Assembly (NCBI GenBank): GCA_963775425.1
Contig: CAVZJB010000004.1
Location: forward strand, 352,001-416,000
Origin: an uncultured delta proteobacterium
GTDB taxonomy: Bacteria > Myxococcota > UBA727 > VGSZ01
Direction: 5' to 3'
DNA: 64,000 nucleotides
Of this stretch, positions 28,696-46,087 are shown in pieces. The notes under the pieces are model-generated. The model was given only the letters and a program-made list of their open reading frames with translations. It ran no database searches and was not told the origin of the DNA. The translations under genes and the position numbers were made by a program. Every line of letters begins with the position of its first letter. The stretch's first letter is position 1.

Positions 28696-30216
28696 ATGCG
28701 CATCCTCCCGTTCTTCTTCGTGCTCGCGTTCTCGACGACAGCGGCTGCGAACAACATCGGCATCTTCGGCAAGTCCGGCCGCGACACGGACAGCGGCACC
28801 TGCACCCAGTGCCACAACGTCGACGGGATCGACGCCACCGTCCTCAACACACCCGCCCCCACCATCACCGTGGACGGGCTCGATGGGCCGTTCTTCGCCG
28901 GTGGCACGGCCGACATCACCATTACGGTGAAGACCAACGATCCGAGCGGCGGCATCGCCGAGGCCAACTGCCCCGTGCGCTGCGCGGGCTTCGGCGCCGC
29001 CGTGGACAAGGGGGCCGGGTTCTTCATCGTGCCTGACGGCTCCCCCGTGCAGGTGAACGGCACCCGCGACGAGGTCGCGCACATCGCCAAGCAGCAGTTC
29101 GTCGACGGCGCCGTCAGCTACCATGTCCTCCTCGGCGGCCTCGCCGTCGGGGACCACACGCTCTTCGTGGCCGGCAACGACGTCGACGGGCAGATCCAGC
29201 TCGGCGATCGGGTCGCGTCCGCCACGTTCCCCTTCACCGTGGACGAGTCGTCGCCGCCGCCGCCGCAGGACGGTGGCTGCGCGCAGACCGGCGGCGACGT
29301 GCCGGCGCTCGGGGCGCTCTTCCTGCTGGCGCTCCTCGCGCTGCGCCGCCGCTCCGCCGGCGCCACGAGCGCCGCGCTCGTCGCCGGCGCGTGTCTCGTG
29401 CTCTCGGGCAACGCGCAGGCGGCCAACCCGCGCAACAGCCAGGACAACTGTCCATCGGCGGTGCCCGGCGCCACCACGGCGGTGAAGGACGTCGACGGCG
29501 GCGTCGAGCTCACGGTCACGGGCAGCGGCCACGCCACCAACAAGATCCGCAAGCGCGCCAGGTCCATCGCCGCGGCGAGCAAGCGCCAGCCCAAGGCCAC
29601 CAAGCACAACGGCCGGGGCGACGGCGGCGGCCGCACCGGGCGCTGTCCGGTGGTGATGGTCAAGTCTTCCGTCGTCGCCAAGAACGTCGACGGCGGCGCG
29701 CTGCTCACGGTCAAGGCCGACAACGCCGCCGACGTCGACTGGCTGCGCAAGGAGACGCGCGCGCGCCTCGAGGAGCAGACCGCGGCGTCCGCCGGCCACG
29801 GCAAGATGCTGCACTGCCCGAGCGCGCTCGACGGCGCGGCCACGCAGGTCACGGACACCAAGGACGGCGTCGTCGTGACGGTCACCGGTCCCGAGAAGGA
29901 CATTCGCGCGCGCACCAAGGACCTCATCGAGGCAGCGTCCAAGGCGGACGAGAGCGCCATGGGCCACGGCGGCAACGGCCAGGGCGGCGGCAGCTTCGGG
30001 CGCTGCCCCGTCGTCGTCACCGACACCAAGCTGTCCGCCGCGGACGTGCCCGGCGGCTCGAAGATCACCGTCGCGGCCAAGGCGCCGGCGGGGGTCGCCG
30101 CGCTCCAGAAAGAGGCCCACGCGCGCGCGGAGCGCTTCCCTGCTCCCGCCGCCGCAGCACCGGAGAAGCCCGCGCCCGAAAACGCGCCGGCCACGCCCGC
30201 GCCGCATGCGAAGTAG
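28696..30216 (+). CDS. Two-part secreted protein: Reeler-like CxxCH domain, internal MYXO-CTERM, second signal peptide, duplicated CP/Gly-loop domain
   Basis: MRILPFFFVLAFSTTAAA signal; GKSG...CTQCH; GGCAQTGG...LFLLALLALRRR; then SAALVAGACLVLSGNAQA; two ~105-aa repeats. Confidence 0.8.
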   Translation: MRILPFFFVLAFSTTAAANNIGIFGKSGRDTDSGTCTQCHNVDGIDATVLNTPAPTITVDGLDGPFFAGGTADITITVKTNDPSGGIAEANCPVRCAGFGAAVDKGAGFFIVPDGSPVQVNGTRDEVAHIAKQQFVDGAVSYHVLLGGLAVGDHTLFVAGNDVDGQIQLGDRVASATFPFTVDESSPPPPQDGGCAQTGGDVPALGALFLLALLALRRRSAGATSAALVAGACLVLSGNAQAANPRNSQDNCPSAVPGATTAVKDVDGGVELTVTGSGHATNKIRKRARSIAAASKRQPKATKHNGRGDGGGRTGRCPVVMVKSSVVAKNVDGGALLTVKADNAADVDWLRKETRARLEEQTAASAGHGKMLHCPSALDGAATQVTDTKDGVVVTVTGPEKDIRARTKDLIEAASKADESAMGHGGNGQGGGSFGRCPVVVTDTKLSAADVPGGSKITVAAKAPAGVAALQKEAHARAERFPAPAAAAPEKPAPENAPATPAPHAK

Positions 30217-31222
30217 CCCGTTCTTCGCCGCAGGGGCCCTCGCCGCCGCGGTCCTCGTCGCAGGCTGTCACGAGGCGAGCGCGCCCGCCGCGCCCGCCAC
30301 GCCCGCCAACGTGTCCGCCGACGCCGGGCCGGCGCGCGGCCACGCCGTCATCGCGCCGCGCGCGGGCGGCGGCGGCCGCGGCAAGCGCGGCGGCGGCGGC
30401 GGCGGGAACGGCGCCGGCGGCGGCGTGGGCGGCCCCAAGCGGCGCTTCCGCACGCCGTTCGTGTACGCCGACGGCGTCCCCCTGGGGGCCATGCGCTTCG
30501 GCGAGCTGCCGGCGCGGCTCGAGACCACCTGGCTCCCCGTCGACGGCCTCGACAAGGGCGTGCGGCGCTTCGTGCTGATCGACTACTTCGCCGCCCTCGG
30601 CATCGACGTGAAGAAGATCAAGACGGTGCACCTGTACAGCGGCCGCAGCCGCGTGTCCGTCGTCGACGGAGACGCGCTGCGCCGGGAGAAGGGCGCGGAG
30701 CGCACGCTCTTCCAGTTCACCCAGAGCAACCGCGGCAAGGTGCAGATGCGCTGGCCCGATCACACGACCACCACGGATCGCATCGACAAGGTCAACGACG
30801 TCGCCGTCTATCTCGACAAGAAGCCGCCGGAGATCACCCACGAGGGGCCGGTCCTCGACGGCAAAGAGCTCGACGAGATCCCCTACGTCACCACGGACGT
30901 GCAGGGCGGCACCCACGTCACCGTCGACGGGACGCTGCGCGCCTTCGTGCGCCCGCGTGATCTCGACGCCTCGAAGGGGCCCGTCTCCCTGCTCGAAGTG
31001 ATCTCTGAAAAAGGCATTTCCACCGCTGAATTGAAGGCCGCAGATCTGATCGACGGCGACGAGCTCGTCCGTCGGTTGACGGTGGGGCAGTTGCCGTCGC
31101 TGAGGGTGACTGCCCCAGGCGGCGGCAACGGCGGCGTCCTGCAAACCTCTCCAGATGCTCGAAATATCACAGCAATTCTCCTCTACCTCCACGCCACGCC
31201 GCCCGATTGGGCAAGCCGCTGA
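30206..31222 (+). CDS. Lipoprotein, hypothetical, with Gly-rich segment
   Basis: MRSSPFFAAGALAAAVLVAGC lipobox; overlaps the upstream stop; normal codon bias. Confidence 0.75.
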   Translation: MRSSPFFAAGALAAAVLVAGCHEASAPAAPATPANVSADAGPARGHAVIAPRAGGGGRGKRGGGGGGNGAGGGVGGPKRRFRTPFVYADGVPLGAMRFGELPARLETTWLPVDGLDKGVRRFVLIDYFAALGIDVKKIKTVHLYSGRSRVSVVDGDALRREKGAERTLFQFTQSNRGKVQMRWPDHTTTTDRIDKVNDVAVYLDKKPPEITHEGPVLDGKELDEIPYVTTDVQGGTHVTVDGTLRAFVRPRDLDASKGPVSLLEVISEKGISTAELKAADLIDGDELVRRLTVGQLPSLRVTAPGGGNGGVLQTSPDARNITAILLYLHATPPDWASR

Positions 31223-31333
31223 CCGCCATGTGGCAGCTCGATGGCATGTGCGTGGACGTCCCATCCGTGCAGTGCCCGAGGCGCGCTGTGCGGGACTCCA
31301 CGGATACTGCCTCTCGGTCCCCCGGAGAAACAC

Positions 31334-34300
31334 ATGAACCACAATCGCAAACTCTCAGTGCTCTTCGGGGTCGCAGCGGCCCTGCTCCTCGCCACCACCG
31401 CGACGGCTCAGGTGCAACGCGCACCTGTCTCCGTCCGGCTCACGAACGGTCTCGATGCGGGCCCTTCGGGTGACAACACCGGACCGGGCGCCGAACAAGC
31501 GACCCTCGTGCAGTCCGTCGTCGACGGCCACCACTACATCACCACGGTCTGGATGTCGTCGCAGGTCGGCAACGGTGACCGTCCCTACCAGTGCAAGTGC
31601 GCCACCACCGAGCTCGACCCGCTGCAGGGTCCCCGCACCGTCGCGGGCCCCACGCAGATCACCGCCCTCAACGGCGATCGTCCGTGCAACCACCCGCACA
31701 TGGACATCAACCCGCTCACCAACCAGATCCTGTTGAGCTACGGCAGCACCAACGGCAGCAACAACGTGCAGCCGTATGTCCAGGGTCTCGACGTCATGTG
31801 CAACGTGACGACGAACAAGATCCGCATCGGCAACAACAACGGCAACGACGGCGCGCCGTGGGTCCAGGTGGTGAACCCCGCCACGGGCCTGTTCCAGGTC
31901 GGCTACCTGGAGAACAACCAGCGTTCGCGCGCGGTCGGCGTCAGCCTCCCCGCGGGCGCCACCGCGCTCACCCGCGGCAACGACGGCAACCACAGCGTCG
32001 GCGGCAACGTCCTGTACAACAAGACCATCGTCGGCACGGCCAACATCGGCCGTCCCTCGATCGCCCGTGTCAGCGACACCAGCACCATCTTCTGCTCCAG
32101 CAACGGTGACAACCGCCCGCCGGAGTTCGGCGTCGCCTGCGCCGCCGTCGACGCCCTCACCGGCGACAAGACCTGGGACAACAACACCTGCACGCCCGCC
32201 CGCGGCAACAACACCCAGGGCTCCTGCCTCATCGCGCAGTCGCACCCGAACGCGAACCCGCCGACGTACATGAACCAGCCGATCGTCGCCCTCGGCGAAA
32301 ACGGCCGCTTCTACGTGCAGGTCGAGCAGAGCAACGGCCCGCCGAACAACAACAACAACAACGCCCGCGGCGCCACCACCACCATGCTGTACACGCTGCT
32401 CCCGAACGCGACCGGCCCGAGCATCCAGGGCCACGTCGAGAGCATCGGCCTCAACCAGGTGCACGCCACCACCTGCACCGGCAAGTACGGCCAGGACGCC
32501 AAGGTCCACGTCGCGGTCGTCGACTCCTCCATCACCGGCTCCGGCATCGGCGCCGTGCAGCTCGAGAAGTTCGACATCACCGGCCAGACCCTGACCCAGG
32601 TCGGCAACCCGCTCGCCCTCTCCGGCTACCCGGCGGACAGCGGCTACCTCGCCAACCAGGACGGCCAGAACCCGAACGACCAGGGCCGTGACTTCATGCG
32701 CTGCATCGGCGACATCGCCAACCCCGGCTTCGGCGTGGCCAACGGCTTCATGCCCACCGTGCAGAGCTTCTTCGCCATCCCCTTCGCCGGCTGCGCCGAC
32801 GACCAGGGCGCGGCGTGCGACCCCGACGTCAACCCGAACAACCCCGAGAAGAACTCGCTGTTCCTGAGCCTCCTGCCCGCCGAGGAGCCCGCGCCCGCGC
32901 CCATCGTGACCCACGACCTCTCCGTCGTCGTCGATGGCCAGGGCACCGGCAAGGTCTTCTCGAGCCCGCTCGGTGTCGACGGCTGCGACAGCGGCGCCAC
33001 CTGCACCGCCACCTTCGACGAAGGCACCAACATCACGCTGACCGCTCTCGCCGGTGAAGGCTCCATCTTCAGCGGATGGCAGGGCGCCTGCACGGGCACC
33101 GGCGGCTGCGTCGTCGCCATGAGCCAGGCGCAGCAGGTCACCGCGACCTTCGACGTCGGCGGCGTCATCGTGAACGACCCCGTCGGCCTCATCGTGAGCG
33201 TCCTCGGTCAGGGTGACGGCAGCGTGACCTCCGACCCCGCGGGCATCACCTGCACCGGCGGCACCTGCGCCAGCAACTTCGACCGCAACAGCAGCGTGAC
33301 GCTCACCGCCACTCCCGGCGCGGGCTCGAAGTTCACGGGCTGGAACGGCGACTGCAGCGGCACCGAGCCCTGCGTGCTCACGCTCAGCGCCGCGCGCAAC
33401 GTGACCGCGGTGTTCGACCTCGACCCGAACGCGCCCGACGGCGGCGACAACGGCAACGGCAACGGCGGCGACGTGACCAAGGCTCCGGGCGCGAGCTCGA
33501 CGGGCTTCAACTGCGCCTCGAGCGGTTCCAGCCCGAGCGCCTACGCCATGCTCGCGCTCGTGGCGGGCGGCCTGTTGTTCCTCCGTCGCCGGAGGTCGGT
33601 TCTGACGGGCGCCGCGAGCGCTGCCGTCGCCGTCGGCCTCGTCGCCTCGCTGACCGCCTGCCCGGCGGCGGCGCCGACCCCGGTCATCGACGCCTTCGTC
33701 GCCGACCAGCCCACGGTCGCGGCGGGGACGCCGGTGCAGCTCTCCTACCAGGTGCATGACGCCGAGGCGGTGACCATCTCCGTGCTCGCCGGTGTCGACG
33801 TGCTTCCCTTCAGCGACCAGCTGAGCGGAACCATCTTCACCCCACCGGTGACGGTCCCCACCACGTTCGTCATCACGGCGTTCGGCCCCGCGCTTGCGGG
33901 GCGCGCCCCCATCCAAAGCACCAAGACGGTGAGCGTGACGGTGGGTGACCCCGCCAACCCGACGCCGAGCGAGGGCGAGGGCGAGGGCGAGAACAACGTC
34001 GCGGTCCACGCGCAGATCCTGTCGTTCGGGCCGTCGGCGACCAACGTCACCACCGGCGACTCCGTGACCCTGACCTGGCAGACGAGCAACGCCGCCTCCG
34101 GCGTCATCCTCGCCAACGACGCGGTGCTGACCACCATCACGGCGTCCGACCTCACCACCGGCACGTTCGGCACCACCCCCGACGCGTCCGCGGTGTACAC
34201 GCTGTCGCTGTCCGGCTCCGACGGTCAGCTCGTGACGTCGACGACGGCCGTGAACGTGTCCCCGCCGGGCGTGGGGCCGCTCACCGCCGAGGCGATGTTC

Positions 34301-35029
34301 TCGAGCAACGTCGAGCCCATCCTGCAGTCGAAGTGCGGTGTCTGCCACGAGTCGGGCAACGCCTCGGGCTACCCGGACCTCTTCGGCACCAGCAGCCCCG
34401 ACACCTACTACCAGCGCGTCACCGCCGACTCGCGGTTCATCCCCGCGGTCCCCGAGGACAGCCTGCTGCTGTTGAAGGGTGAGCACACCGGCCCGGCGTT
34501 CCTCCCGGCGGAGGCGCAGCAGGTGACCGCGTGGCTCGTGCAGGAAGCGGGGGAGCGCGGCACCGGCTCCACCGGCCCCACCGACCCGGGTCCGACGGGC
34601 AACTTCCAGCCGACCACGCTCGCCGAGGCCCTCACCCGCTTCGGCGCCTGCATGGACCGCCAGGTGTGGGACAACACCGTGGGCCAGGGCAACAACACGC
34701 GCATCGCCCAGCAGAACACCACGCAGGGCAAGTGCATGGGCTGCCACTCCTCCGGCACGGCGGGCGCGTTCCTGAGCGCCAGCTCCGGTGACACGTTCGA
34801 CATGAACCGCACCCGCCCCTACGTCCTGAAGCTCGTGCTCAGCACGGCCAACGTCGATGGCTCCTTCAAGGACCTCGTCGCGGCCCGCCGCTTCGAGAAG
34901 AAGGGCAGCGAGGGCGGCGACCACCCGAGCTACCAGCTCACCCAGGCCCGCCTCGACGCCATCAACAGCTTCGTGGACCAGACCCTCACGTCGTACCACG
35001 ACTACACGCAGGCCTGTAACAACCCGTAG
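31334..35029 (+). CDS. Large two-part surface protein: N-domain + 2 InlB-B-like repeats, internal MYXO-CTERM, second lipoprotein signal, Ig-like domains, 2 CxxCH
   Basis: GGAG RBS; MNHNRKLSV...ATA signal; G.G.V.S.P.GI.C...F.GW.G.C.G..C repeats; GFNCASS...LLFLRRRR; then ...VASLTAC; CGVCH and CMGCH. Confidence 0.85.
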   Translation: MNHNRKLSVLFGVAAALLLATTATAQVQRAPVSVRLTNGLDAGPSGDNTGPGAEQATLVQSVVDGHHYITTVWMSSQVGNGDRPYQCKCATTELDPLQGPRTVAGPTQITALNGDRPCNHPHMDINPLTNQILLSYGSTNGSNNVQPYVQGLDVMCNVTTNKIRIGNNNGNDGAPWVQVVNPATGLFQVGYLENNQRSRAVGVSLPAGATALTRGNDGNHSVGGNVLYNKTIVGTANIGRPSIARVSDTSTIFCSSNGDNRPPEFGVACAAVDALTGDKTWDNNTCTPARGNNTQGSCLIAQSHPNANPPTYMNQPIVALGENGRFYVQVEQSNGPPNNNNNNARGATTTMLYTLLPNATGPSIQGHVESIGLNQVHATTCTGKYGQDAKVHVAVVDSSITGSGIGAVQLEKFDITGQTLTQVGNPLALSGYPADSGYLANQDGQNPNDQGRDFMRCIGDIANPGFGVANGFMPTVQSFFAIPFAGCADDQGAACDPDVNPNNPEKNSLFLSLLPAEEPAPAPIVTHDLSVVVDGQGTGKVFSSPLGVDGCDSGATCTATFDEGTNITLTALAGEGSIFSGWQGACTGTGGCVVAMSQAQQVTATFDVGGVIVNDPVGLIVSVLGQGDGSVTSDPAGITCTGGTCASNFDRNSSVTLTATPGAGSKFTGWNGDCSGTEPCVLTLSAARNVTAVFDLDPNAPDGGDNGNGNGGDVTKAPGASSTGFNCASSGSSPSAYAMLALVAGGLLFLRRRRSVLTGAASAAVAVGLVASLTACPAAAPTPVIDAFVADQPTVAAGTPVQLSYQVHDAEAVTISVLAGVDVLPFSDQLSGTIFTPPVTVPTTFVITAFGPALAGRAPIQSTKTVSVTVGDPANPTPSEGEGEGENNVAVHAQILSFGPSATNVTTGDSVTLTWQTSNAASGVILANDAVLTTITASDLTTGTFGTTPDASAVYTLSLSGSDGQLVTSTTAVNVSPPGVGPLTAEAMFSSNVEPILQSKCGVCHESGNASGYPDLFGTSSPDTYYQRVTADSRFIPAVPEDSLLLLKGEHTGPAFLPAEAQQVTAWLVQEAGERGTGSTGPTDPGPTGNFQPTTLAEALTRFGACMDRQVWDNTVGQGNNTRIAQQNTTQGKCMGCHSSGTAGAFLSASSGDTFDMNRTRPYVLKLVLSTANVDGSFKDLVAARRFEKKGSEGGDHPSYQLTQARLDAINSFVDQTLTSYHDYTQACNNP

Positions 35030-37561: not shown

Positions 37562-38185
37562 ATGAAAAAACTCAATGGCCTTCTCGTCCTCTCGTCGTTC
37601 CTGATGCTGCCCCTGCTGTCCACCGCCTGCCCGCCCGCCGTGGGCGAAGGCGAAGGCGAAGGCGAAGGCGAAGGTGAAGGTGAAGGTGAAGGTGAAGGTG
37701 AAGGCGAAGGCGAAGGCGAAGGCGAAGGAGAGGGCGAAGGCGAAGGAGATGCTTGTCTCTCCGGTGGCACCGCTTTGACGACGACGGGCGCGGGCCGCTG
37801 CGACGACCCGAAGGTGGTCACCATCGCGAGCACGGGCACGTTCGTCGTGCAGACGGGCGCGGACCAGACCAACGGCAACAACGCCAACCTCGACACGTGC
37901 GCCAACGGCCAGACCGCGCGTGACGTCGCCTTCCAGCTCGATCTTCCCGCGGGCGTGACGACGTTGCAGGCGAGCGTGGACGCTGGCGGCGGGTCCCCCC
38001 TCGTCAACATCTTCTCCGGCGCGGCGTGCGGCCAGACCGTGAACCAGTGCGCGGCGACGAGCGGCGCGTGCGCCACTGCGACGGCGACGTCGGGGACGGA
38101 CTTCACGGGGACGTCGATCTTCGTCTCCGTCTCCGAGGAGACCGCCACCGCCAACGACTACGCCCTGCGACTCGACGTCCAATGA
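37562..38185 (+). CDS. Lipoprotein with (GE)17 linker and Cys-containing beta domain
   Basis: MKKLNG...LSTAC lipobox; GE tract 37643-37744. Confidence 0.8.
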
Positions 38186-38595
38186 GAGCCCGAGCGCTCA
38201 CCTCGCTCGCCGGCGTCGCCGCCGCGGGACTGCTCGCCGGCGTCTGGCCGAGCTGTCTCCCCGACGGCCCGCCGGAGATCTGCGACAACGGGATCGACGA
38301 CGACGGCGACGGCAACGTCGACTGCGACGACGCCGACTGCGAAGCCGAGTGCGCCGTCACCGCTGGCGAGGGCGAAGGGGAAGGCGAAGGCGAGGGCGAG
38401 GGCGAAGGGGAAGGCGAAGGGGAGGGCGAAGGGGAGGGCGAAGGGGAGGGCGAAGGTGAGGGTGAGGGTGAGGGCGAAGGTGAGGGTGAAGGCGAGGGCG
38501 AAGGTGAGGGTGAGGGTGAAGGCGAGGGCGAAGGTGAGGGCGAAGGCGAAGGCGAGGGAGAGGGCGAGGGTGAAGGTGAAGGCGAGGGCGAATGA
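38182..38595 (+). CDS. Small lipoprotein-like protein: [13 protein letters not shown] motif + terminal (GE)38
   Basis: ATGA-coupled at both ends; hydrophobic signal ending in WPSC; [22 protein letters not shown]. Confidence 0.7.
38365..38592 (+). repeat. Hexanucleotide coding repeat (GGN GAR)x38
   Basis: 228 nt of Gly-Glu codons with mixed synonymous positions. Confidence 0.95.
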
Positions 38596-40814
38596 TGAGG
38601 ATGTCGACGGCAGCGCTCGCGTGCGCGCTCGTCGCTGCGGTGCCCGCGCGAGCGGGGGTGGAGACCTCGTGGGACTGCTTCTTCGCCGCCGAAGGCGTTG
38701 ATTGCTCCCAGCTCGAAGAAGCGTTCTTCCACGCGACCCCGTTGTTGATCCGTGTCGACGCGCCGGACAAGCCGGCGCCCTACGACGGTGGAGCCGTGCA
38801 CCCGTCGAGCGACGAGCGCGCCGGGGCCTCGCCGGCGTCGGGCGAGCCGGGCGCGACGTGGGGCGCCGGGGCGTCGCCGGCGTCGGGCACGCCGGGCGCG
38901 ACGTGGGGCGCCGGGGCGTCGCCGGCGTCGGGCACGCCGGGCGCGACGTGGGGCGCCGGGGCGTCGCCGGCGGCGGGCACGCCGGGCGCGACGTCGGGCG
39001 CAGGGGCGTCGCCGGCGGCGGGCACGCCGGGCGCGACGTGGGGCGCAGGGGCGTCGCCGGCGTCGGGCACGCCGGGCGCGACGTCGGGCGCAGGGACGTC
39101 GCCGGCGTCGGGCACGCCGGGCGCGACCTCGGGCGCAGGGACGTCGCCGGCGGCGGGCACGCCGGGCGCGACCTCGGGCGCAGGGACGTCACCGGCGGCG
39201 GGCACGCCGGGCGCGACCTCGGGCGCAGGGACGTCGCCGGCGGCGGGCACGCCGGGCGCGACCTCGGGCGCAGGGACGTCGCCGACGGCGGGCGCGCCGG
39301 GCGCGACCTCGGGCGCAGGGACGTCGCCGGCGGCGGGCACGCCGGGCGCGACCTCGGGCGCCGGGACCTCGCCGGCGGCGGGCGAGCCGGCCGCCACGTG
39401 GGACGCCGGGACGTCGCCGGCGTCGGGCACGCCTGCGGCCGCGTCGGGCGCAGCGACGTCACCGTCGTCGGGCGCCGCGACGGCGCCGGAGCCGCCGGGT
39501 GCAGGCGCTCCGGCGCACGCCGCACCACCGGCAGCGCCGGACGACTCCTCGCACGCGGCGCCGGACGCTCCCCCTCAGGCATCGACGCACGCGGATGCGT
39601 CGACGAGGCGGGTCGCGGTGGTGCTGCGCAGCACGCCGTTCACCGGGGGCGTCGAGTACAGCATCGACATCACCGGCGCCGACGGGCGCGAGCACGTGGG
39701 CATCGTGGACCGCGTGCCGTCGACCTTCTCCGACGCCACCGTCGGCAATGGCAGCGGCGGCGGCGGCGGGCTCGGCGGCGGCGCCGACACCGGCGGCGGC
39801 GGCGGACAGGGGACGGGCGGCGGCAGCGGCCGCGGCCGCGTCTCGCGCAGCGCCGTCGTCGTCCTCCGCCTCGTCGCCGATCTCCAGCGGGCGATCGTGC
39901 CGTTCCTCTCCGCCGACCACCCCGCCGTCGTCGACGACGACGGCATGACGCTCTCCCTCAAGGACCCCGCCTTCACGCCGGGCCAGGCGCGCGTCGAGGA
40001 CCGCGCCGCCCGCTGGTTCGCGAGCCCTACGTTCTCCGGCGACGTCTCCCAGACCGCCCTCCTGCGCATCCAGGGCCGCGCGCAGCTCGACGCCAACTGG
40101 TCCAATCCGCTCTTTCGCGTCTTCGGCACGTCGTGGGCCGGCTTCACGTTCCTCTCCGCGCCGGGGCCGCGGGAGAAGGACCCGGCCCAGACCTTCGGCT
40201 ACGCCATCGACGGCCTCGACGTCACCGGCGCCAGCGTCCTCGGCGGCGGCTGGAGCGTCGGTGTCGAGGGCCGCGTCACCCAGGCGCCCGACCAGAACTG
40301 GTTGCTGCGGGCCTCCGGCTACACCGGCGTCGAGTGGGTCCTCGTGCCCTTCCTCGCCACCAACGGCGGCAACGTCGGCGTCCGCTACGTCATCGGCACC
40401 GAGCACCAGGAGTACGTCCACGAAAACGTCGAGAAGTCGTTCGAAGGAAACTTTCTCCGCCACCGGCTCGTCGCCTTCGGCGTCTGGCACTTCGAGCGCG
40501 TCGACCTCTCCGCGTCTCTCGCCGGCAGCTCCATCGTCAAGGACTTCACCTACTCGGACGTGTCCGCCGCGGCCAGCGTGGCGTGGCGCGTGGTCAACGA
40601 CCTCTCCGTCTCCCTGTCGACGACGGCGTCGTACCGAAACGCGCTCGTCAACGCCCCCGACAACCTCAACGAGCTCGATCCGCTCGAGCGGTTCGTCGGC
40701 GGGGGAAACTTCGGCGCCGTGAACTACACGGCGTCGCTGTCGTTGGTCTACGTCCTCGGCAACTCGCTGCTCGAGCGCCAGGACCAGAGGTGGAGCAATG
40801 GCACCGAGCAGTGA
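38592..40814 (+). CDS. Putative outer-membrane beta-barrel protein with 15-aa repeat insertion
   Basis: Signal peptide; [10 protein letters not shown]-domain; C-terminal amphipathic strands ending [13 protein letters not shown]...W. Confidence 0.7.
38820..39450 (+). repeat. 45-bp coding tandem repeat (GAG[AT]SPA[SA]GTPGAT[WS]), about 14 copies
   Basis: Direct tandem copies with no unique spacers. Confidence 0.9.
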
Positions 40815-40815
40815 G

Positions 40816-41397
40816 TCACTGCGGCGTCAGGCGCAACCCGACGTCGGGGCCGTTTGCGCCGCCGCCGCCTCCGCCGCCTCCGCCGCCGCCGCCTCCGCCG
40901 CCTCCGCCGCCGCCGCCACCACCGCCGCCGGTGGCGCGGAACTGCAGCTCGCCGGCGTCGTCGGCGTTGACGGTGGTCGAGCCACAGGCGCCGTCGGGGT
41001 TGGTGACGTTGACCGTCTCGAAGAAGCGGAAGCCCACCGTGCTCGGGCAGCCCGACGTCGAGCACGGCTTGTTCACGGCTTGCACGAGCACCGCTTGACC
41101 CGGTTGGTAGCCGCCGACGACGAAGTAGCCCTTGAGGCTGTTGAAGGCGGCGCCGTCGACGGTGTCGCCGAAGAGCACGACGTCGTCGCCGCCGGCGTCG
41201 ATGGCGAGGGCGGTGGCGGTGCTGTCGTTGCTCAGATCGTGCTGAACGTAGAGCGCCGCCCCGTCGCAGGGCGACGAGATGTCGAGCGTGTCACCCTCCC
41301 CTTCTCCCTCGCCGCCGAGGCGATCGGAGTAGCGCTGGCACGCGCAAGCGGTCACCAGCGTCAGGAGGAGGACGACGCGTGATGAGAATCGGTTCAC
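40816..41397 (-). CDS. Lipoprotein, hypothetical, with GEGEGEG and C-terminal poly-Gly
   Basis: GTG after GGAGGAG; VLLLTLVTACAC lipobox; poly-Gly of about 22 residues. Confidence 0.65.
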   Translation of the reverse strand: MNRFSSRVVLLLTLVTACACQRYSDRLGGEGEGEGDTLDISSPCDGAALYVQHDLSNDSTATALAIDAGGDDVVLFGDTVDGAAFNSLKGYFVVGGYQPGQAVLVQAVNKPCSTSGCPSTVGFRFFETVNVTNPDGACGSTTVNADDAGELQFRATGGGGGGGGGGGGGGGGGGGGGGGGANGPDVGLRLTPQ

Positions 41398-41467
41398 CCT
41401 GCTCCTCCGATAACCTCGAGGATACGGAGTTGGTTTCGACGACGTCAACGCGACGAGGGAGTGAGTC

Positions 41468-41956
41468 ATGACGGCGGGACATCGGATGATCCTCGGACTT
41501 GCGCTGCTCGCGTCGCTGCCCGCCCTCGGTCAAACGACGGCGGCGCCCGCGGAACCGCCGCCCAACCCCGGGCGGCCCGTGCACGTCGTCGAGGAGCGCG
41601 CCCTCGAGGTGAGGGTCGGCGCCGACGTCGTCGCCAGGGTGACGTCGGCGGATCTCGCCAAGGTCACCCCGCTGCCGACGGCGCGAAAGACCGGGGGCAA
41701 GACACACCTGTGGCCGCTCAAGGACGCCCTCGCCGCCGTCGCAGGGCCGAAGGCCCGCCTCGTCGCCGTGACGCTGCCGGGGGGTCAGCGGCTGGCCGTC
41801 GACGAGAAGGCCTGGGCGGACCCGGAGCGGATCCCGGTGGTGTGGCAGAACCGGCGCGGGCTCTTCAAGCTCGGCTGGGTCGATAAGCTCGGACAGCGCA
41901 TCCCAGACAGCCAGGAGCTGAGGGACGTGCGCGCTCTGGAGATCGTGAGGCCCTGA
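41468..41956 (+). CDS. Secreted hypothetical protein, first gene of the ecfT/S-mosAB-like operon
   Basis: GAGGGAG RBS; signal peptide; 3 nt from the next gene. Confidence 0.7.
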   Translation: MTAGHRMILGLALLASLPALGQTTAAPAEPPPNPGRPVHVVEERALEVRVGADVVARVTSADLAKVTPLPTARKTGGKTHLWPLKDALAAVAGPKARLVAVTLPGGQRLAVDEKAWADPERIPVVWQNRRGLFKLGWVDKLGQRIPDSQELRDVRALEIVRP

Positions 41957-41959
41957 AGC

Positions 41960-43369
41960 ATGCCCGCCGTCGACGACGTTCATGCGCCGGTGCGCGGGGG
42001 CCTCGATCCTCGCCTGCGCGTGCTCTTCCTCCTCGCCGTCGCCGTCGGGGTCTTCTTCCTGCACGTCGTGTGGCAGGCCGCGGCGGCGTGCGGCGCGCTC
42101 GCGGTGCTGTGGCTCGTCGTCAAGCTGCCCCCGAGGCGCTTGCTGCGGCAGGTGCTCAAGCTCTGGGGCTTCGCGCTCTTCGTCCTCGTGTCGTACGCGT
42201 TCTTCGCGAACAACCCGGCCACGGATCGATGGGAACAGCTCCCGATCGTCCCTGTGCGCATCAACGTCTCCGCGCTCGTGCTCGGCTGCTTGATGATCCT
42301 GCGCGTCATCGCCGTCATCCTCGCCTCGCAGGTCGCGCGCGCCGGCGACGTCCGCGCCGTCGCCGCCGGCCTCGGCAAGCTCGGCGTGCCGCGCATCGTC
42401 GCCGTCTCCATCGACACGGTGCTCTCGCTCCTCGGCGACGAGCCGCGTGGCCGCATGGGGCGCGGCAGCGGCGGCGGCACGGGGCGCGGCGGGGGCGGGG
42501 GCGGGGGCGGCCGAGGCGACGGCGGCGGCGGGGGACGCGGGCGTGGCGACGGCGAGCGCGCTCACGACGGCGACGGCGGCGGCGGCGGTTTCTGGCAGGC
42601 GGTGCGCCGAATCGCGCGCGGCGACGTCGAGCCCATCGTCCAGCGGCTCTCGCGCCAGATCGATCGCGCGCACGAGCACGCCGAGGCGCAGAGCGACGCC
42701 CTCACGGAGAAGGAGCGCACGCGCGTGGCAGACATCGGGGTCATCGCCGGTGTCTCGCTCACCATGCTCGGCATCAAGGCCCTCAAGATCCTGCCGAGCA
42801 TCCCCTTCGCGCCGGGCCACAAGCTCGTGTTGCTCACGCCGCTGTACATCGTCGCCGGGATGCTGACCCGCGGGCGGGGCGGCGCCACGCTCACGGGGCT
42901 CACCATGGGGACGGTGGCGTTCCTCATGGGTGACGGCAAGTACGGCGTGTTCGAGATCGTGAAGCACGTGGTGCCCGGCATCATCACGGACCTCTGCCTG
43001 CCCCTCGTCGCCGGCGGCGGGCGCAGACCGGGCGGCGTGGTGTGGACGCTGTTCGGTGGCGTCATCGCCGCGGGCCGCTTCGCCACCATCTTCGTCATCA
43101 CGCTGCTCGTTCAGGCCCCGGCTGTGGCGTACGCCATCCTCGTGCCCGGGCTGACGGTGCACATCACGTTCGGCCTCGCGTCGGGCTACGTCACCTTCCA
43201 CATCGTGCGCGCGCTCGATCGCTTGCCGGCGGCAGCGGCGGGGCGCTTCCCCCCGCGCGTGGATGCCCGCGGCGGCGCGCCCCCCGCCGCCGACGCGCCG
43301 GCTGACGACGCCGGCGGCGCCCCCCTCGAAGCCGGCGCAACGCCGGCGGAGCTCAAGGAGACAGGATGA
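41960..43369 (+). CDS. Fused ECF transporter T-component-like + S-component-like membrane protein
   Basis: LDPRLRVLFLL start, LRVIAVILAS...GLGKLGVP (CbiQ/EcfT-like); Gly/Arg linker; ARG motif; C-terminal ~6 TM with PFAPGHK...GGATLTG...PGIITDL (S-like). Confidence 0.7.
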   Translation: MPAVDDVHAPVRGGLDPRLRVLFLLAVAVGVFFLHVVWQAAAACGALAVLWLVVKLPPRRLLRQVLKLWGFALFVLVSYAFFANNPATDRWEQLPIVPVRINVSALVLGCLMILRVIAVILASQVARAGDVRAVAAGLGKLGVPRIVAVSIDTVLSLLGDEPRGRMGRGSGGGTGRGGGGGGGGRGDGGGGGRGRGDGERAHDGDGGGGGFWQAVRRIARGDVEPIVQRLSRQIDRAHEHAEAQSDALTEKERTRVADIGVIAGVSLTMLGIKALKILPSIPFAPGHKLVLLTPLYIVAGMLTRGRGGATLTGLTMGTVAFLMGDGKYGVFEIVKHVVPGIITDLCLPLVAGGGRRPGGVVWTLFGGVIAAGRFATIFVITLLVQAPAVAYAILVPGLTVHITFGLASGYVTFHIVRALDRLPAAAAGRFPPRVDARGGAPPAADAPADDAGGAPLEAGATPAELKETG

Positions 43370-44202
43370 ACAAGTTGGTCAAAGGCGACGGCCGCACGCA
43401 CATCGAGAGCTCTCTCATGCGCGAATCGCTCGTCGACAAGCGCGTCATCGCGCGTACGCAATCGGAGCACGAGCTCGCCATCGTTCCCGACGTCAAGCTC
43501 GTCGGCATCGGCGGGCAGTCGATCTTCGACCGCGGCAAGGAGGGCGTGCTGCCGCTCGTCGAGGAGATCAAGGACGCGCGGGCCAAGAAGAAGCGCATGG
43601 TGCTCGGCGTCGGCGGCGGGACCCGCGTGCGCCACACCGTCTCCATCGCCTACGACCTCGGCATCCCGGTGGGCGGCATCGCGCAGCTCGTCGGCGCCAT
43701 GGAAGAGGCGAACGCGGTGTTCTTGAACGCGCTGCTCGCCAAGAACGGGTCCATCGTGATGCAGCGGGAGCACTTCTGGGAGCTGCCGCTGTACCTCGAG
43801 AGCGGGATGTTGCCGATCATCATCAGCATCCCGCCGTATCACTTCTGGGAGCCGCCGGTCGACGACAGTCCCCTGCCCTCCCACGGCAGCGACTTCGGCC
43901 TGTTCATCTACGCCGAGGTGCTCGGCATGGAGCACGTCATCTTCGTCAAGGACGAGGACGGCATGTACGACAAGGACCCCAAGGCGCACGACGACGCCAA
44001 GCTCATCAAGAGCACCACGCTGGGGGCGCTGCTCGCGGACATGCCCGAGGAGCTCATCCTCGACCGCATGCTCTTCGAGGCGTGGCGCTCCGCGCGGCAC
44101 GTGAAGCGCGTCCAGATCGTCAACGGGCTCAAGCAGGGCGAGCTCACGCGCGCGTTGAACGGCGAGGACGCCGGCACCATCATCACGAAGGAGACGGCAT
44201 GA
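43366..44202 (+). CDS. mosA: Molybdenum storage protein alpha-like subunit (amino-acid-kinase/UMP-kinase fold)
   Basis: HIESSLMRESLVD N-terminus, IGGQSIFDRG..LPLVEE, GGGTRVRH, DLGIPVG, PPYHFWE, VKDEDG, RHVKRVQIVNGL..LTRALNGEDAGTII. Confidence 0.75.
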   Translation: MNKLVKGDGRTHIESSLMRESLVDKRVIARTQSEHELAIVPDVKLVGIGGQSIFDRGKEGVLPLVEEIKDARAKKKRMVLGVGGGTRVRHTVSIAYDLGIPVGGIAQLVGAMEEANAVFLNALLAKNGSIVMQREHFWELPLYLESGMLPIIISIPPYHFWEPPVDDSPLPSHGSDFGLFIYAEVLGMEHVIFVKDEDGMYDKDPKAHDDAKLIKSTTLGALLADMPEELILDRMLFEAWRSARHVKRVQIVNGLKQGELTRALNGEDAGTIITKETA

Positions 44203-45002
44203 GCGAGCGAAGAGTGATCGAGAGCGCGCTGGCGCAGTCGTCGATGACGAACCCGGCCACGGCGGGGTTCAGCTACGACGCCCAGGCGATGATGCCGGAC
44301 GTCAAGGTCATCAAGATCGGCGGGCAGTCGATCATGGACCGCGGGCGCGCAGCGGTGTTCCCCGTGCTCGACGAGCTCGTCGCCGCCAAGGCGCAGCACA
44401 AGCTGCTGCTTGGCTGCGGCGGCGGCACGCGCGCGCGGCACGTGTACGCGGTGGCGTCCGACCTCGAGATGCCCACGGGCGTGCTGGCCGCGCTCGGCGG
44501 CTACGTCCCCATGCAGAACGCGCGCATGGTGCAGATGCTGCTCGCCAAGCACGGCGGCATCTACATCATGCACGACGACTTCGAGAAGCTGCCGCTCTAC
44601 TTCCAGCTCGGCTGCATCCCCATCATGACGGGCATGCCGCCGTTTTCGTATTGGGAGAAGCCCGGCGAGCATGGCCGCATCCCGCAGAACCGCACGGACG
44701 CCGGCGTGTTCCTCTCGGCGGAGGTGCTCGGTGCCAAGCGCGCGCTGTACATCAAAGACGAGGACGGCCTGTTCGAGGACGACCCGAAGAAGAACAAGAC
44801 CGCCAAGCACATCCCGCGCATCACCGCCGCCGAGCTCATCGAGCGCAACCTCGATGACCTCATCGTCGAGCGCGTGGTTATCGAGTACCTGCGGCACGCG
44901 CGCTTCTGTCACGAGCTTCAGATCGTGAACGGCCTGAAGCCCGGCAACATCACGCGCGCCCTCGCCGGCGAGGACGTGGGGACCATCATCACGAAGGAGT
45001 GA
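44199..45002 (+). CDS. mosB: Molybdenum storage protein beta-like subunit
   Basis: VIKIGGQSIMDRGRAAVFPVLDELVAA, GGGTRARH, GMPPFSYW, IPQNRTDAG, KDEDGL, NGLKPGNITRALAGEDVGTIIT; ATGA-coupled paralog of the preceding gene. Confidence 0.82.
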   Translation: MSERRVIESALAQSSMTNPATAGFSYDAQAMMPDVKVIKIGGQSIMDRGRAAVFPVLDELVAAKAQHKLLLGCGGGTRARHVYAVASDLEMPTGVLAALGGYVPMQNARMVQMLLAKHGGIYIMHDDFEKLPLYFQLGCIPIMTGMPPFSYWEKPGEHGRIPQNRTDAGVFLSAEVLGAKRALYIKDEDGLFEDDPKKNKTAKHIPRITAAELIERNLDDLIVERVVIEYLRHARFCHELQIVNGLKPGNITRALAGEDVGTIITKE

Positions 45003-45036
45003 GCTCGCTCCCGCGCCTCGCGACGCGGGTGAGCTC
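45001..45036. terminator. Possible hairpin between convergent genes
   Basis: GAGCTC..CCCGCG / CGCGGG.GAGCTC inverted repeat; no U-tract. Confidence 0.4.
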
Positions 45037-46087
45037 AGCCGCGCTCGTCTTCGTCGCGGGCGCCGCGCATGCCGCGCTCGAGGCGGTCGCGCACCTTCAT
45101 GTGCTGGCGGGCGCGGTAGCGGTCGTGGCGGTTCTCGCCACGCTCGTTCTCCTCGTCGGTCTCACGATCGACGAGCTGCATCTCGGCGAGGCCGAAGATG
45201 ACGCGGCCGAGGCCAGCGCGGTCCGCGGCGGAGGGCAGGAGCGCGTCGGGGAGGCGGATGGGGACGTCGACGATGAAGCTCACTACGCGATAGGTAGGGC
45301 CCGAGAACTCGTTCACGTGCCCCGCCGACTGCTCCTCGTGGCCGAGCTCGAGCTGGAGGTCCTGGGCGTACTCGCGATACCTCTCGTGGCTCTCGATGAG
45401 CGCCGTGAAATTGATGAGCAGGTTCACGCTCTGGCCCGGCGCCACGTAGTTGTACGGGAACAGGCGCGACGTCATCTGCGGCATCAAGGTGAGCACGTCG
45501 AGCGGCCGCTCCACGACGAAACGGAAGCGGACGCGGTCGTGGATGGCGGCGGCGTGGTGCTCCTTTTTCACGAGGAGCTTGGTGATCAGGCTGGTGCGCG
45601 ACTTCTCGCCGCCGACGTAGCTCACCAAGGGGAAGCCCTCCGCGCGCAGGGCGGCGGCGAACACATCCACCTTCTCGACGAGGAGCTCGGCGAGGCGCGA
45701 CTGCGACAGCGGCAAGCGAAACCGCAGCTCACGGGCCTCGATGTGCTGCACGATGTGCATCACCTTCAGGAGCAGACAGGCGAAGAACCGGTCGCGGCGC
45801 CGGCCGCGCTTCTCGGAGGCGTAGAGGAACAGCTCGAGCGGCGGGCACGACAGGAGCTCCGGCGGCGGCTTGTAACCGTGCTCCTCCTGCAGGTAGTGCG
45901 CGGCCAGGTCGCGCAGGTGCACGAGGCGCACGAGATCCTCGGGGTCGTCGGCGTCGCCCCCGAGGAGGTGGATGAACGACTTGACGTCGTCGATGGTCTC
46001 GTGCTGAAGCCGGTACCAGTCGACGACCGAGCCGCCACGAAGGATGAGGCGGACCTGCTCGAGCTCCGCGAGGGTGAGTGCGCGCAC
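45035..46087 (-). CDS. TIGR04552-like conserved myxobacterial protein
   Basis: LEQVRLILRGGSVVDW, KVMH, KSRTSLITKLLVK, IHDRVRFR, NEFSGPTYR, EMQ, NERGENRH..Y. Confidence 0.75.
   Translation of the reverse strand: MRALTLAELEQVRLILRGGSVVDWYRLQHETIDDVKSFIHLLGGDADDPEDLVRLVHLRDLAAHYLQEEHGYKPPPELLSCPPLELFLYASEKRGRRRDRFFACLLLKVMHIVQHIEARELRFRLPLSQSRLAELLVEKVDVFAAALRAEGFPLVSYVGGEKSRTSLITKLLVKKEHHAAAIHDRVRFRFVVERPLDVLTLMPQMTSRLFPYNYVAPGQSVNLLINFTALIESHERYREYAQDLQLELGHEEQSAGHVNEFSGPTYRVVSFIVDVPIRLPDALLPSAADRAGLGRVIFGLAEMQLVDRETDEENERGENRHDRYRARQHMKVRDRLERGMRGARDEDERG

Follow-up and report, generated by a model that had tools for sequence, protein, structure and literature searches.

A conserved gene triad links an EcfT- and S-component-like membrane protein to a pair of molybdenum-storage-like subunits in Myxococcota and other bacteria

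We analyzed a 64,000-nucleotide stretch of DNA (hereafter the window) from an uncultured delta proteobacterium of the phylum Myxococcota (assembly GCA_963775425.1, contig CAVZJB010000004.1, positions 352,001 to 416,000), in which a compact unit of four genes occupies positions 41468-45002 of the + strand. The first gene, g1 (41468-41956, 162 residues), encodes a secreted-looking, poorly conserved accessory protein, and g2 (41960-43369, 469 residues) a membrane protein that reads as a fusion of an EcfT-like and an S-component-like half. These are followed by g3 (43366-44202, 278 residues), a subunit resembling those of the molybdenum storage protein (MoSto) and of the type that is fused to g2 in other bacteria, and by g4 (44199-45002, 267 residues), a second MoSto-like subunit that is beta-like and keeps catalytic-type residues. 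The genes g2, g3 and g4 form a conserved module and travel together. We propose, with a probability of about 0.5, that this operon specifies a relative of the Azotobacter molybdenum and tungsten storage machine that is attached to the membrane, with g3 as adaptor and g4 as ATPase and with oxyanion captured into the docked complex. The module suggests an undescribed form of molybdenum or tungsten handling at the cell membrane.

Conservation of the triad and its natural fusions

A word-indexed search returned 281 relatives of g2 with lengths of 369-493 residues, and among 1.84 billion entries the family comprises 314 representatives at E≤1e-3, 118 of them at E≤1e-30. Gene order was followed in the best 80 of 136 stretches encoding a g2 relative among 185,579 species genomes, all 80 being metagenome-assembled genomes (MAGs). 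Their labels are Myxococcota-type in 63 cases and vaguely (delta)proteobacterial in nine, and the other eight are labeled as Usitatibacter (two), Eremiobacterota-type (three), Terriglobia, 'Rickettsiales' and Gemmatimonadales. Family members are also found in Pendulispora albinea, a cultured species, and in a record labeled Haliangium sp. Wherever at least 300 bp of sequence remain past g2, the next gene is an ortholog of g3 (67-78% identical; 78 of 78 loci), and the other two g2 loci end within 174 bp. Likewise g4 follows g3 in 70 of 71 loci, the single exception (L050) having a truncated g3. An overlap of 4 nucleotides between g2 and g3 was seen in 32 of 49 complete triads, a count that depends on a heuristic choice of start codons.

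The same tight spacing is found in the window. Only 3 nucleotides separate g1 from g2, and the g2/g3 and g3/g4 junctions are both 4-nucleotide ATGA overlaps with GGAGAC ahead of each, in line with an earlier note on this DNA that had described four translationally coupled genes at these positions. Because the flanking open reading frames (ORFs) are divergent on one side (40816-41469, - strand) and convergent on the other (45035-46087, - strand), g1-g4 stands as a self-contained unit; neither flanking ORF has a Pfam family. The genome to which the window belongs (8.26 Mb, 94.5% complete) carries the triad in one copy. Within a sample of 401 genomes of the phylum, g2 was found in at least five by a stricter first look and MoSto-like proteins in nine; all five g2 genomes are among these nine, and all five carry g3/g4. 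Sampled genomes given as the same order measure 0.5-2.5 Mb versus 8.3 Mb here, an odd spread for one order.

Further evidence on how g2 and g3 relate comes from natural fusions, which we searched for among proteins longer than 367 residues containing a g3-type domain and in a representative search. In L034 (669 residues) and L037 (661 residues, from a chromosome-level record) g2 continues in frame into a g3-type domain, with about 20 residues between the last membrane helix and a conserved DGRTH arm. Further g2-g3 fusions are P0278-P0281 (658-665 residues), P0282 (730 residues) and P0286 (767 residues), and the fusion P0172 (732 residues) matches both Pfam CbiQ and Pfam AA_kinase. One of these proteins, P0279, is known from six sources and lies on a 167-kb contig. 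Altogether at least nine distinct fusion proteins are known, which identity assigns to about three lineages, and in a phylogenetic tree their kinase-fold domains fall inside or beside the g3 clade. Because such fusions constitute Rosetta-stone evidence, we take g2 and the g3-type subunit to act as one assembly, and their physical association is very likely on these comparisons. The fusions also suggest a position for g3, at the C-terminal, cytoplasmic end of the S-like domain. A structural model of the natural fusion P0126, built with nine sequences, had a predicted local distance difference test score (pLDDT) of 67.4, a predicted template modeling score (pTM) of 0.49 and a disordered linker at residues 367-415, and is too weak to define the arrangement of the domains. 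The link between the membrane protein and the storage pair that the earlier note had proposed is nevertheless now stronger, resting both on synteny in 78 of 78 loci and on in-frame fusions.

Predicted architecture of the membrane protein and the kinase-fold pair

The N-terminal part of g2 (residues 14-159, window 41999-42436, + strand) is predicted by Pfam and by the VIA fold search to be an EcfT/CbiQ-like four-helix scaffold. Residues 14-149 match Pfam CbiQ with 28.8 bits (cut-off 25) over profile positions 7-140 of 216, and the NCBIfam model ECF_T_CbiQ gives 39 bits, which is under its cut-off. There follow, judging from alignments and model confidence, a Gly/Arg-rich, disordered and predicted cytoplasmic loop (residues 160-210, window 42437-42589, + strand) and a coupling-helix-like segment containing FW..RRIARGD (residues 211-243, window 42590-42688, + strand). 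The remainder is a putative six-helix S-component-like domain (residues 250-430, window 42707-43249, + strand). An AlphaFold2 model of g2 built with 31 homologs reached a pLDDT of 81.5 and a pTM of 0.80, and it is weak at residues 163-207 (pLDDT <50) and in the C-terminal tail.

The VIA fold search covers about 48,000 Protein Data Bank (PDB) representatives and is independent of Foldseek. For residues 250-430 of g2, the first 14 rows were all S-components of energy-coupling factor (ECF) transporters, with Z scores of 9.3-13.9. The top rows include FolT, ThiT, PanT, RibU, BioY and CbiM/NikM, and the best is 4huq_S (Z 13.9, root-mean-square deviation 2.9, 163 of 164 residues aligned), a score to be read with the caveat that helical models can reach Z values of 13-14 by chance in this search. 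We accept the S-component assignment because the matches agree in family and span the whole chain. Residues 14-146 aligned with EcfT 5d3m_D (Z 9.1, 128 residues) and with CbiQ (Z 7.5), and lower rows for g2 held BtuM (8OVV, Z 8.5) and MreD (Z 7.9). Foldseek returned nothing from the PDB for the g2 model at E≤0.001, the S-component 5edl appearing at E 0.64 with a probability of 0.98. A Pfam search with the S-like domain alone gave no match, and a PDB sequence search with g2 gave Gly-rich noise only. As modeled, g2 is thus one polypeptide composed of an EcfT-like scaffold, a remodeled cytoplasmic coupling region and an S-component-fold domain. The profile and fold comparisons of 41960-43369 therefore agree with the earlier reading of this gene as a T plus S fusion, the N-terminal half being EcfT/CbiQ-like by its Pfam match and the C-terminal half having the S-component fold.

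The topology of S-components is established knowledge for this family, and we used it to orient g2. Given four helices followed by six, the coupling region and C-terminus would face the cytoplasm, and the invariant PFAPGHK and GDG[KR]YG loops, together with E332, K335 and H336, would lie on the periplasmic side. Residue conservation was counted in 35 orthologs each of g2, g3 and g4. Invariant residues of the S-like domain are K276, K288, R306, D325, E332, K335, H336, D344 and R373; among them K288, D325, E332, K335 and H336 (each 35/35) map to predicted periplasmic loops and outer helix ends.

The T-like half departs from its canonical counterparts. In eight CbiQ proteins from the same phylum the coupling region consists of RARxAR[ST] followed about 40 residues on by A[ML]xxRG[FY]DGE. 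In g2 a family-specific ARAGD motif closes the fourth helix (Arg127 in 35/35), the Gly/Arg-rich disordered loop stands in place of the first CbiQ signature, and only an ARG-D motif comes afterwards. The claim that the T half keeps an ARG motif holds in so far as RRIARGD is present at about residues 215-222, with Arg220 in 29, Gly221 in 34 and Asp222 in 33 of 35 orthologs; it does not extend to the first T motif, which the loop has replaced. The S-like domain begins straight after the ARG-D motif, with no C-terminal T helix past the coupling region. The Gly/Arg loop varies in length and is present in all aligned g2 orthologs, and a similar Gly/Arg tail ends some of them (for example P0111, P0124 and P0196). 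It might contact an anionic cluster or a cytoplasmic partner.

Both g3 and g4 belong to Pfam AA_kinase, and both are far closer to MoSto subunits than to other members of this fold. Against PDB sequences g3 scores 199.8 bits to MosB (E 5.3e-58) and 150 bits to MosA (about 1e-42), and g4 scores 259.3 bits to MosB (E 3.6e-76) and 147 bits to MosA (about 1e-42). UMP and isopentenyl-phosphate kinases reach at most 27 bits to g3 and 32 bits to g4, with E values no better than 1e-6 for the UMP kinases. The proposed MoSto homology of the pair is therefore upheld.

The two subunits are 44% identical to each other and differ at two positions of catalytic type. Lys39 and Met146 of g4 align with Lys42 and Met149 of MosB and are kept in 35/35 orthologs. 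Met149 is reportedly named by Brunle et al. 2019 among the catalytic residues of the beta subunit. A comparison of MosB sequences identifies Lys42 as the residue altered in PDB 6RIS. In g3 the corresponding positions 47 and 155 are Gly/Ser/Ala and Ile/Thr/Val, never Lys and never Met (0/35). These patterns suggest that g4 is a beta-like subunit with catalytic-type residues retained and that g3 is likely a non-catalytic MoSto-like subunit with an alpha-like role. The N-terminal arm of g3 is nearly invariant (D8, G9, R10, H12, S15, L17, M18, E20, S21 and L22), and mean column identity is 69% for g3, 76% for g4 and 50% for g2.

We rejected a simple orthology of g3 with MosA and of g4 with MosB, as both score higher to MosB and the tree joins g3 with g4. 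MoSto-like pairs that lack g2 likewise score higher to MosB than to MosA, reaching 300 bits to MosB, above g3 and g4. In a tree that did not include the Azotobacter sequences, g3 plus g4 are set apart, at 98/96 support, from the phylum's pairs without g2. Because of this separate clade, and because the g2-less pairs are nearer to MosB, we regard the g2-linked pair as a distinct MoSto-like subfamily. Within the g2-less pairs the two subunits group with each other and not with g3 or g4, a pattern pointing to duplications that occurred separately in each subfamily, or to concerted evolution within them. The g2-less genes are found in four genomes (L102-L105 in G292, G334, G261 and G282), as pairs in three and as a single gene in G282. 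Two of these loci adjoin modA-like genes and one precedes an ABC-2 exporter, and in these four genomes no membrane partner was found near the MoSto-like genes. Two metagenomic proteins, P0277 (467 residues) and P0283 (533 residues), appear to be g3-g4 tandem fusions or truncated forms, and may be real fusions or frameshift artefacts. In two long-read MAGs (L035 and L043) g3/g4 are frameshifted.

Molybdenum context, ATPases and alternative explanations

In 21 sampled loci the ORFs past g4 mostly match SBP_bac_11, BPD_transp_1 and ABC_tran. NCBIfam models identify among them modA (TIGR01256, 190 bits against a cut-off of 62.5) and modB (215 bits, cut-off 183), and a short modC that has no TOBE domain and scores 219 bits, under the cut-off of 285. 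A modA gene lies within 1.5 kb of g4 on the same strand in 35 of the 65 loci that have at least 1.5 kb of sequence after g4, and in L034 a molybdopterin oxidoreductase is encoded directly upstream. The presence of modABC directly downstream in so many relatives supports the molybdenum or tungsten role that the earlier note had suggested. The molybdenum-type importer of the genome studied here is represented by a WtpA-like binding protein (163 bits, cut-off 355; C11:43751-46098, L087), which adjoins ModB-like and ModC-like genes and is the genome's sole match to SBP_bac_11. Also encoded in this genome are MoeA and three or more molybdopterin oxidoreductases.

The T component of an ECF transporter is energized by two ABC (ATP-binding cassette) ATPase domains, which are EcfA/A', CbiO or BioM. 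The 8.26-Mb genome has about 50 matches to ABC ATPases, none of which lies within the window (C4:352001-416000), the closest being at C4:297482 and C4:507248. In the whole genome no ATPase reaches the cut-off of the EcfA model TIGR04520 (best 161.8 versus 315 bits) or of the CbiO model TIGR01166 (best 150.4 versus 211.8 bits), strict cut-offs that only 3 and 2 of 14 control genomes pass. The T-component profile PF02361 matches nothing in this genome at E≤0.001, and g2 itself is too weak to be detected at genome scale. In the four other g2 genomes the sole CbiQ (PF02361) matches are g2, and no ATPase is above the TIGR04520 cut-off. Phylogenetic profiling, which could have tied the membrane fusion to EcfA rather than to mosAB, gave the opposite result, as five of five g2 genomes have no ATPase above the EcfA cut-off and carry g3/g4. 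At the level of loci, 21 of 65 show neither a modA nor an ABC ATPase match over the DNA retrieved, which extends up to 8 kb to each side. The earlier statement that the window has no ABC ATPase is correct; in most relatives the operon does hold one, the short ModC.

On the reading that we prefer, a membrane-attached storage machine, g3 would be a non-catalytic, alpha-like adaptor docked beneath g2, with its conserved N-terminal arm beside the last helix of the S-like domain, and g4 would be the ATP-hydrolyzing 'molybdate kinase/pump' subunit. Together g3 and g4 would build a MoSto-like (g3 g4)n assembly on the inner face of the membrane, where the kinase-fold pair would fill the structural place that EcfA/A' have in ordinary ECF transporters. 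The S-like domain would bind an anion, most likely molybdate or tungstate, at a positively charged candidate site formed by the periplasmic loops PFAPGHK and GDG[KR]YG with E332, K335 and H336. Oxyanion could enter via g2 or via a nearby ModBC/Wtp importer and would be captured, in an ATP-dependent manner, straight into the docked storage complex. In a bolder version, which we put forward only tentatively and consider doubtful, an ECF-type T-S module powered by a MoSto-family ATPase would pump molybdate or tungstate from the periplasm into the membrane-docked cage and so form a new class of primary transporter; here the invariant g3 arm, attached to the last S-like helix, would mechanically link the ATP site with the membrane domain.

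Several observations weigh against these proposals. The T half of g2 is non-canonical, with the first Arg signature lost and the Arg of ARGD kept in only 29/35, and because its signatures are degenerate, coupling of the EcfA/EcfT type cannot simply be assumed. Where modABC shares the operon a second molybdate importer looks redundant, and in the window no molybdenum gene stands beside the operon, nor does the genome have a modA. In addition, the metagenomic protein P0196 (855 residues) carries, ahead of a g2-like T-S protein in the same chain, a ModC-type ATPase and its TOBE domain, a hint that g2 may have an ABC ATPase as its partner. This protein is a singleton on a 2.6-kb contig and may be an assembly or frameshift artefact. 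We are cautious about transport driven by g3/g4 on three grounds, namely the degeneracy of the coupling region, the overlap in role with ModABC and the fusion to ModC.

The simplest use of the same components would be as an anchor, with g2 tethering a MoSto-like complex near ModBC/Wtp importers so that molybdate passes into storage as soon as it enters and the T and S folds serve as mere scaffold. This would fit the degenerate T-like coupling region, the fusions (which demonstrate tethering and nothing beyond it) and the modABC genes that follow the triad in 35/65 loci and would make a second importer unnecessary. However, the charged residues K288, D325, E332, K335 and H336, invariant in 35/35, are needless for a passive anchor, and mod genes are not beside the triad in 21/65 loci or in the genome studied here, so that we consider a pure anchor unlikely. 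An ordinary ECF-type importer, in which the motor of g2 is ModC or an ABC ATPase from another locus and g3/g4 are merely co-regulated soluble storage proteins, would explain P0196, the ModC-like ATPase in the operons of many relatives and the one ARG-like motif kept in g2. We think this very unlikely, as the single ModC fusion faces at least nine fusions to a g3-type subunit, 21/65 loci have no ABC ATPase match in the fetched DNA, the 94.5% complete genome has no EcfA/CbiO-class ATPase above cut-off, and ModC is already partnered by ModB.

Two further explanations assign the S-like domain or the kinase-fold pair a different function, and to both we give small odds. The S-fold may sense a periplasmic ligand and regulate ATP-dependent loading or release by g3/g4, as a receptor or 'transceptor' comparable to the 5TMR-LYT sensor kinases. 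The S-component fold is indeed described in receptors and in MreD besides transporters in the part of a fold survey available to us (PMC11109136), MreD is among the fold matches of g2 (Z 7.9), and the invariant g3 arm lies directly past the last membrane helix in the fusions. Yet the top fold matches are transport S-components and not sensor kinases, and g2 has an EcfT-like half that S-fold receptors do not have. Alternatively, the S-like domain may import some other small molecule that the kinase-fold pair traps by phosphorylation, with the likeness to MoSto reflecting ancestry only. The amino-acid-kinase fold phosphorylates many small acceptors, g3/g4 form a clade distinct from the phylum's remaining MoSto-like pairs (98/96), and the operon in the window has no adjoining molybdenum gene. 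Against such a non-metal function, g4 scores 259 bits to MosB versus at most 32 to UMP kinase and retains the equivalents of Lys42 and Met149, modABC follows in 35/65 loci, and L034 has a molybdopterin oxidoreductase upstream.

Neighboring genes and comparison with known systems

The protein encoded by g1 has a hydrophobic N-terminus that resembles a Sec signal peptide (judged by eye from the translation) and no Pfam or NCBIfam family match. A g1-like sequence precedes g2 in just 3 of 80 loci (L017, L020 and L025), and g1 resembles the C-terminal part of the L017 upstream ORF, the sole match among 40 upstream ORFs. We therefore dropped g1 as a core member, so that of the four-gene module first proposed the triad g2-g3-g4 stands. 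No Rfam family, and thus no riboswitch, matched anywhere in the 64-kb window, and a promoter and terminator scan of the + strand gave no signal above shuffled controls. The DNA ahead of the unit (window 37562-41469) has a G+C content of up to 0.86 and encodes lipoprotein-like ORFs with long (Gly-Glu)n runs and a poly-Gly tail, as well as a 740-residue secreted protein with many copies of a repeat of about 15 residues; none of the ORFs in this stretch has a Pfam family.

Upstream DNA of 4 kb or more is available for 52 relatives, and in 37 of them at least two of three co-oriented genes precede the triad. These genes lack Pfam families and encode proteins of about 380, 630 and 320 residues, and they are often followed by a gene for a cytochrome c of about 180 residues (examples are L008:3262-7967, L016, L038 and L058). 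Weak homologs lie in the window at 29879-35029 (+ strand) in two ORFs, 29879-31222 and 31223-35029, the second of which encodes a fused-looking protein of 1268 residues with Flg_new_2 and cytochrome-c-like matches. The conserved upstream genes may be part of the same system. For upA and upB the ESM Atlas gave weak leads, which were unnamed Myxococcota clusters (0.92), a molybdopterin-oxidoreductase cluster (0.79) and beta-propeller-like matches (≤0.86).

In the literature searched, no paper links 'molybdenum storage' with 'energy-coupling factor' and none pairs 'molybdenum storage protein' with 'myxococc', and subscription papers and supplements may hold more. Molybdenum does not appear in the accessible part of the S-component-fold survey (PMC11109136).

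MoSto has so far been studied as an Azotobacter curiosity. Here, in many bacteria from soil and freshwater, most of them uncultured Myxococcota of the Polyangia type, a distinct MoSto-like clade is obligatorily tied to an ECF-derived membrane protein. Joint action of g2 and g3/g4, if real, would couple the storage of trace metals to the membrane. It would also show that ECF-type membrane modules recruit a motor that is not an ABC ATPase, which bears on how ECF systems evolved and are energized. The cultured carrier Pendulispora albinea and the natural single-chain fusions make the hypothesis directly testable.

BioY can act alone. Solitary S-components (BtuM, PDB 8OVV, and BioY) and S-fold receptors (5TMR-LYT and MreD) share with g2 an S-fold that occurs without an ECF ATPase module, and unlike g2 they have neither an EcfT-like half nor a MoSto-like partner. 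ModABC and WtpABC share genomic context with the triad, as modABC is co-oriented after g4 in many relatives, and both are absent from the window. They belong to the type I ABC importers, use a periplasmic binding protein and have a fold unrelated to that of g2. ECF transporters (CbiMNQO, BioMNY and the group II folate, thiamine and pantothenate systems; PDB 4HUQ, 5D3M and 5X3X) resemble g2 in its predicted S-fold, its EcfT/CbiQ-like scaffold and one ARG-type motif. Unlike them, g2 has T and S in one polypeptide, a Gly/Arg loop in place of the first T signature, and no EcfA/A', the conserved cytoplasmic partner being the kinase-fold pair.

The closest relative of that pair is MoSto of Azotobacter vinelandii (MosA/MosB; PDB 2OGX, 4F6T, 6GU5 and 6RIS). 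MoSto is described as a soluble (alpha-beta)3 cage whose hexamer stores more than 100 molybdenum atoms and hydrolyzes ATP, and the 2019 Discussion of the same paper, in the part available, calls it unique and without known homologs (PMC6448029). As in MoSto, g3 and g4 are two adjacent amino-acid-kinase-fold paralogs of which one, g4, keeps the equivalents of MosB Lys42 and Met149, and they are frequently linked to molybdate uptake genes. Unlike MoSto, the g3/g4 pair invariably has a membrane protein encoded beside it, and in some bacteria the g3-type subunit is part of that protein's chain.

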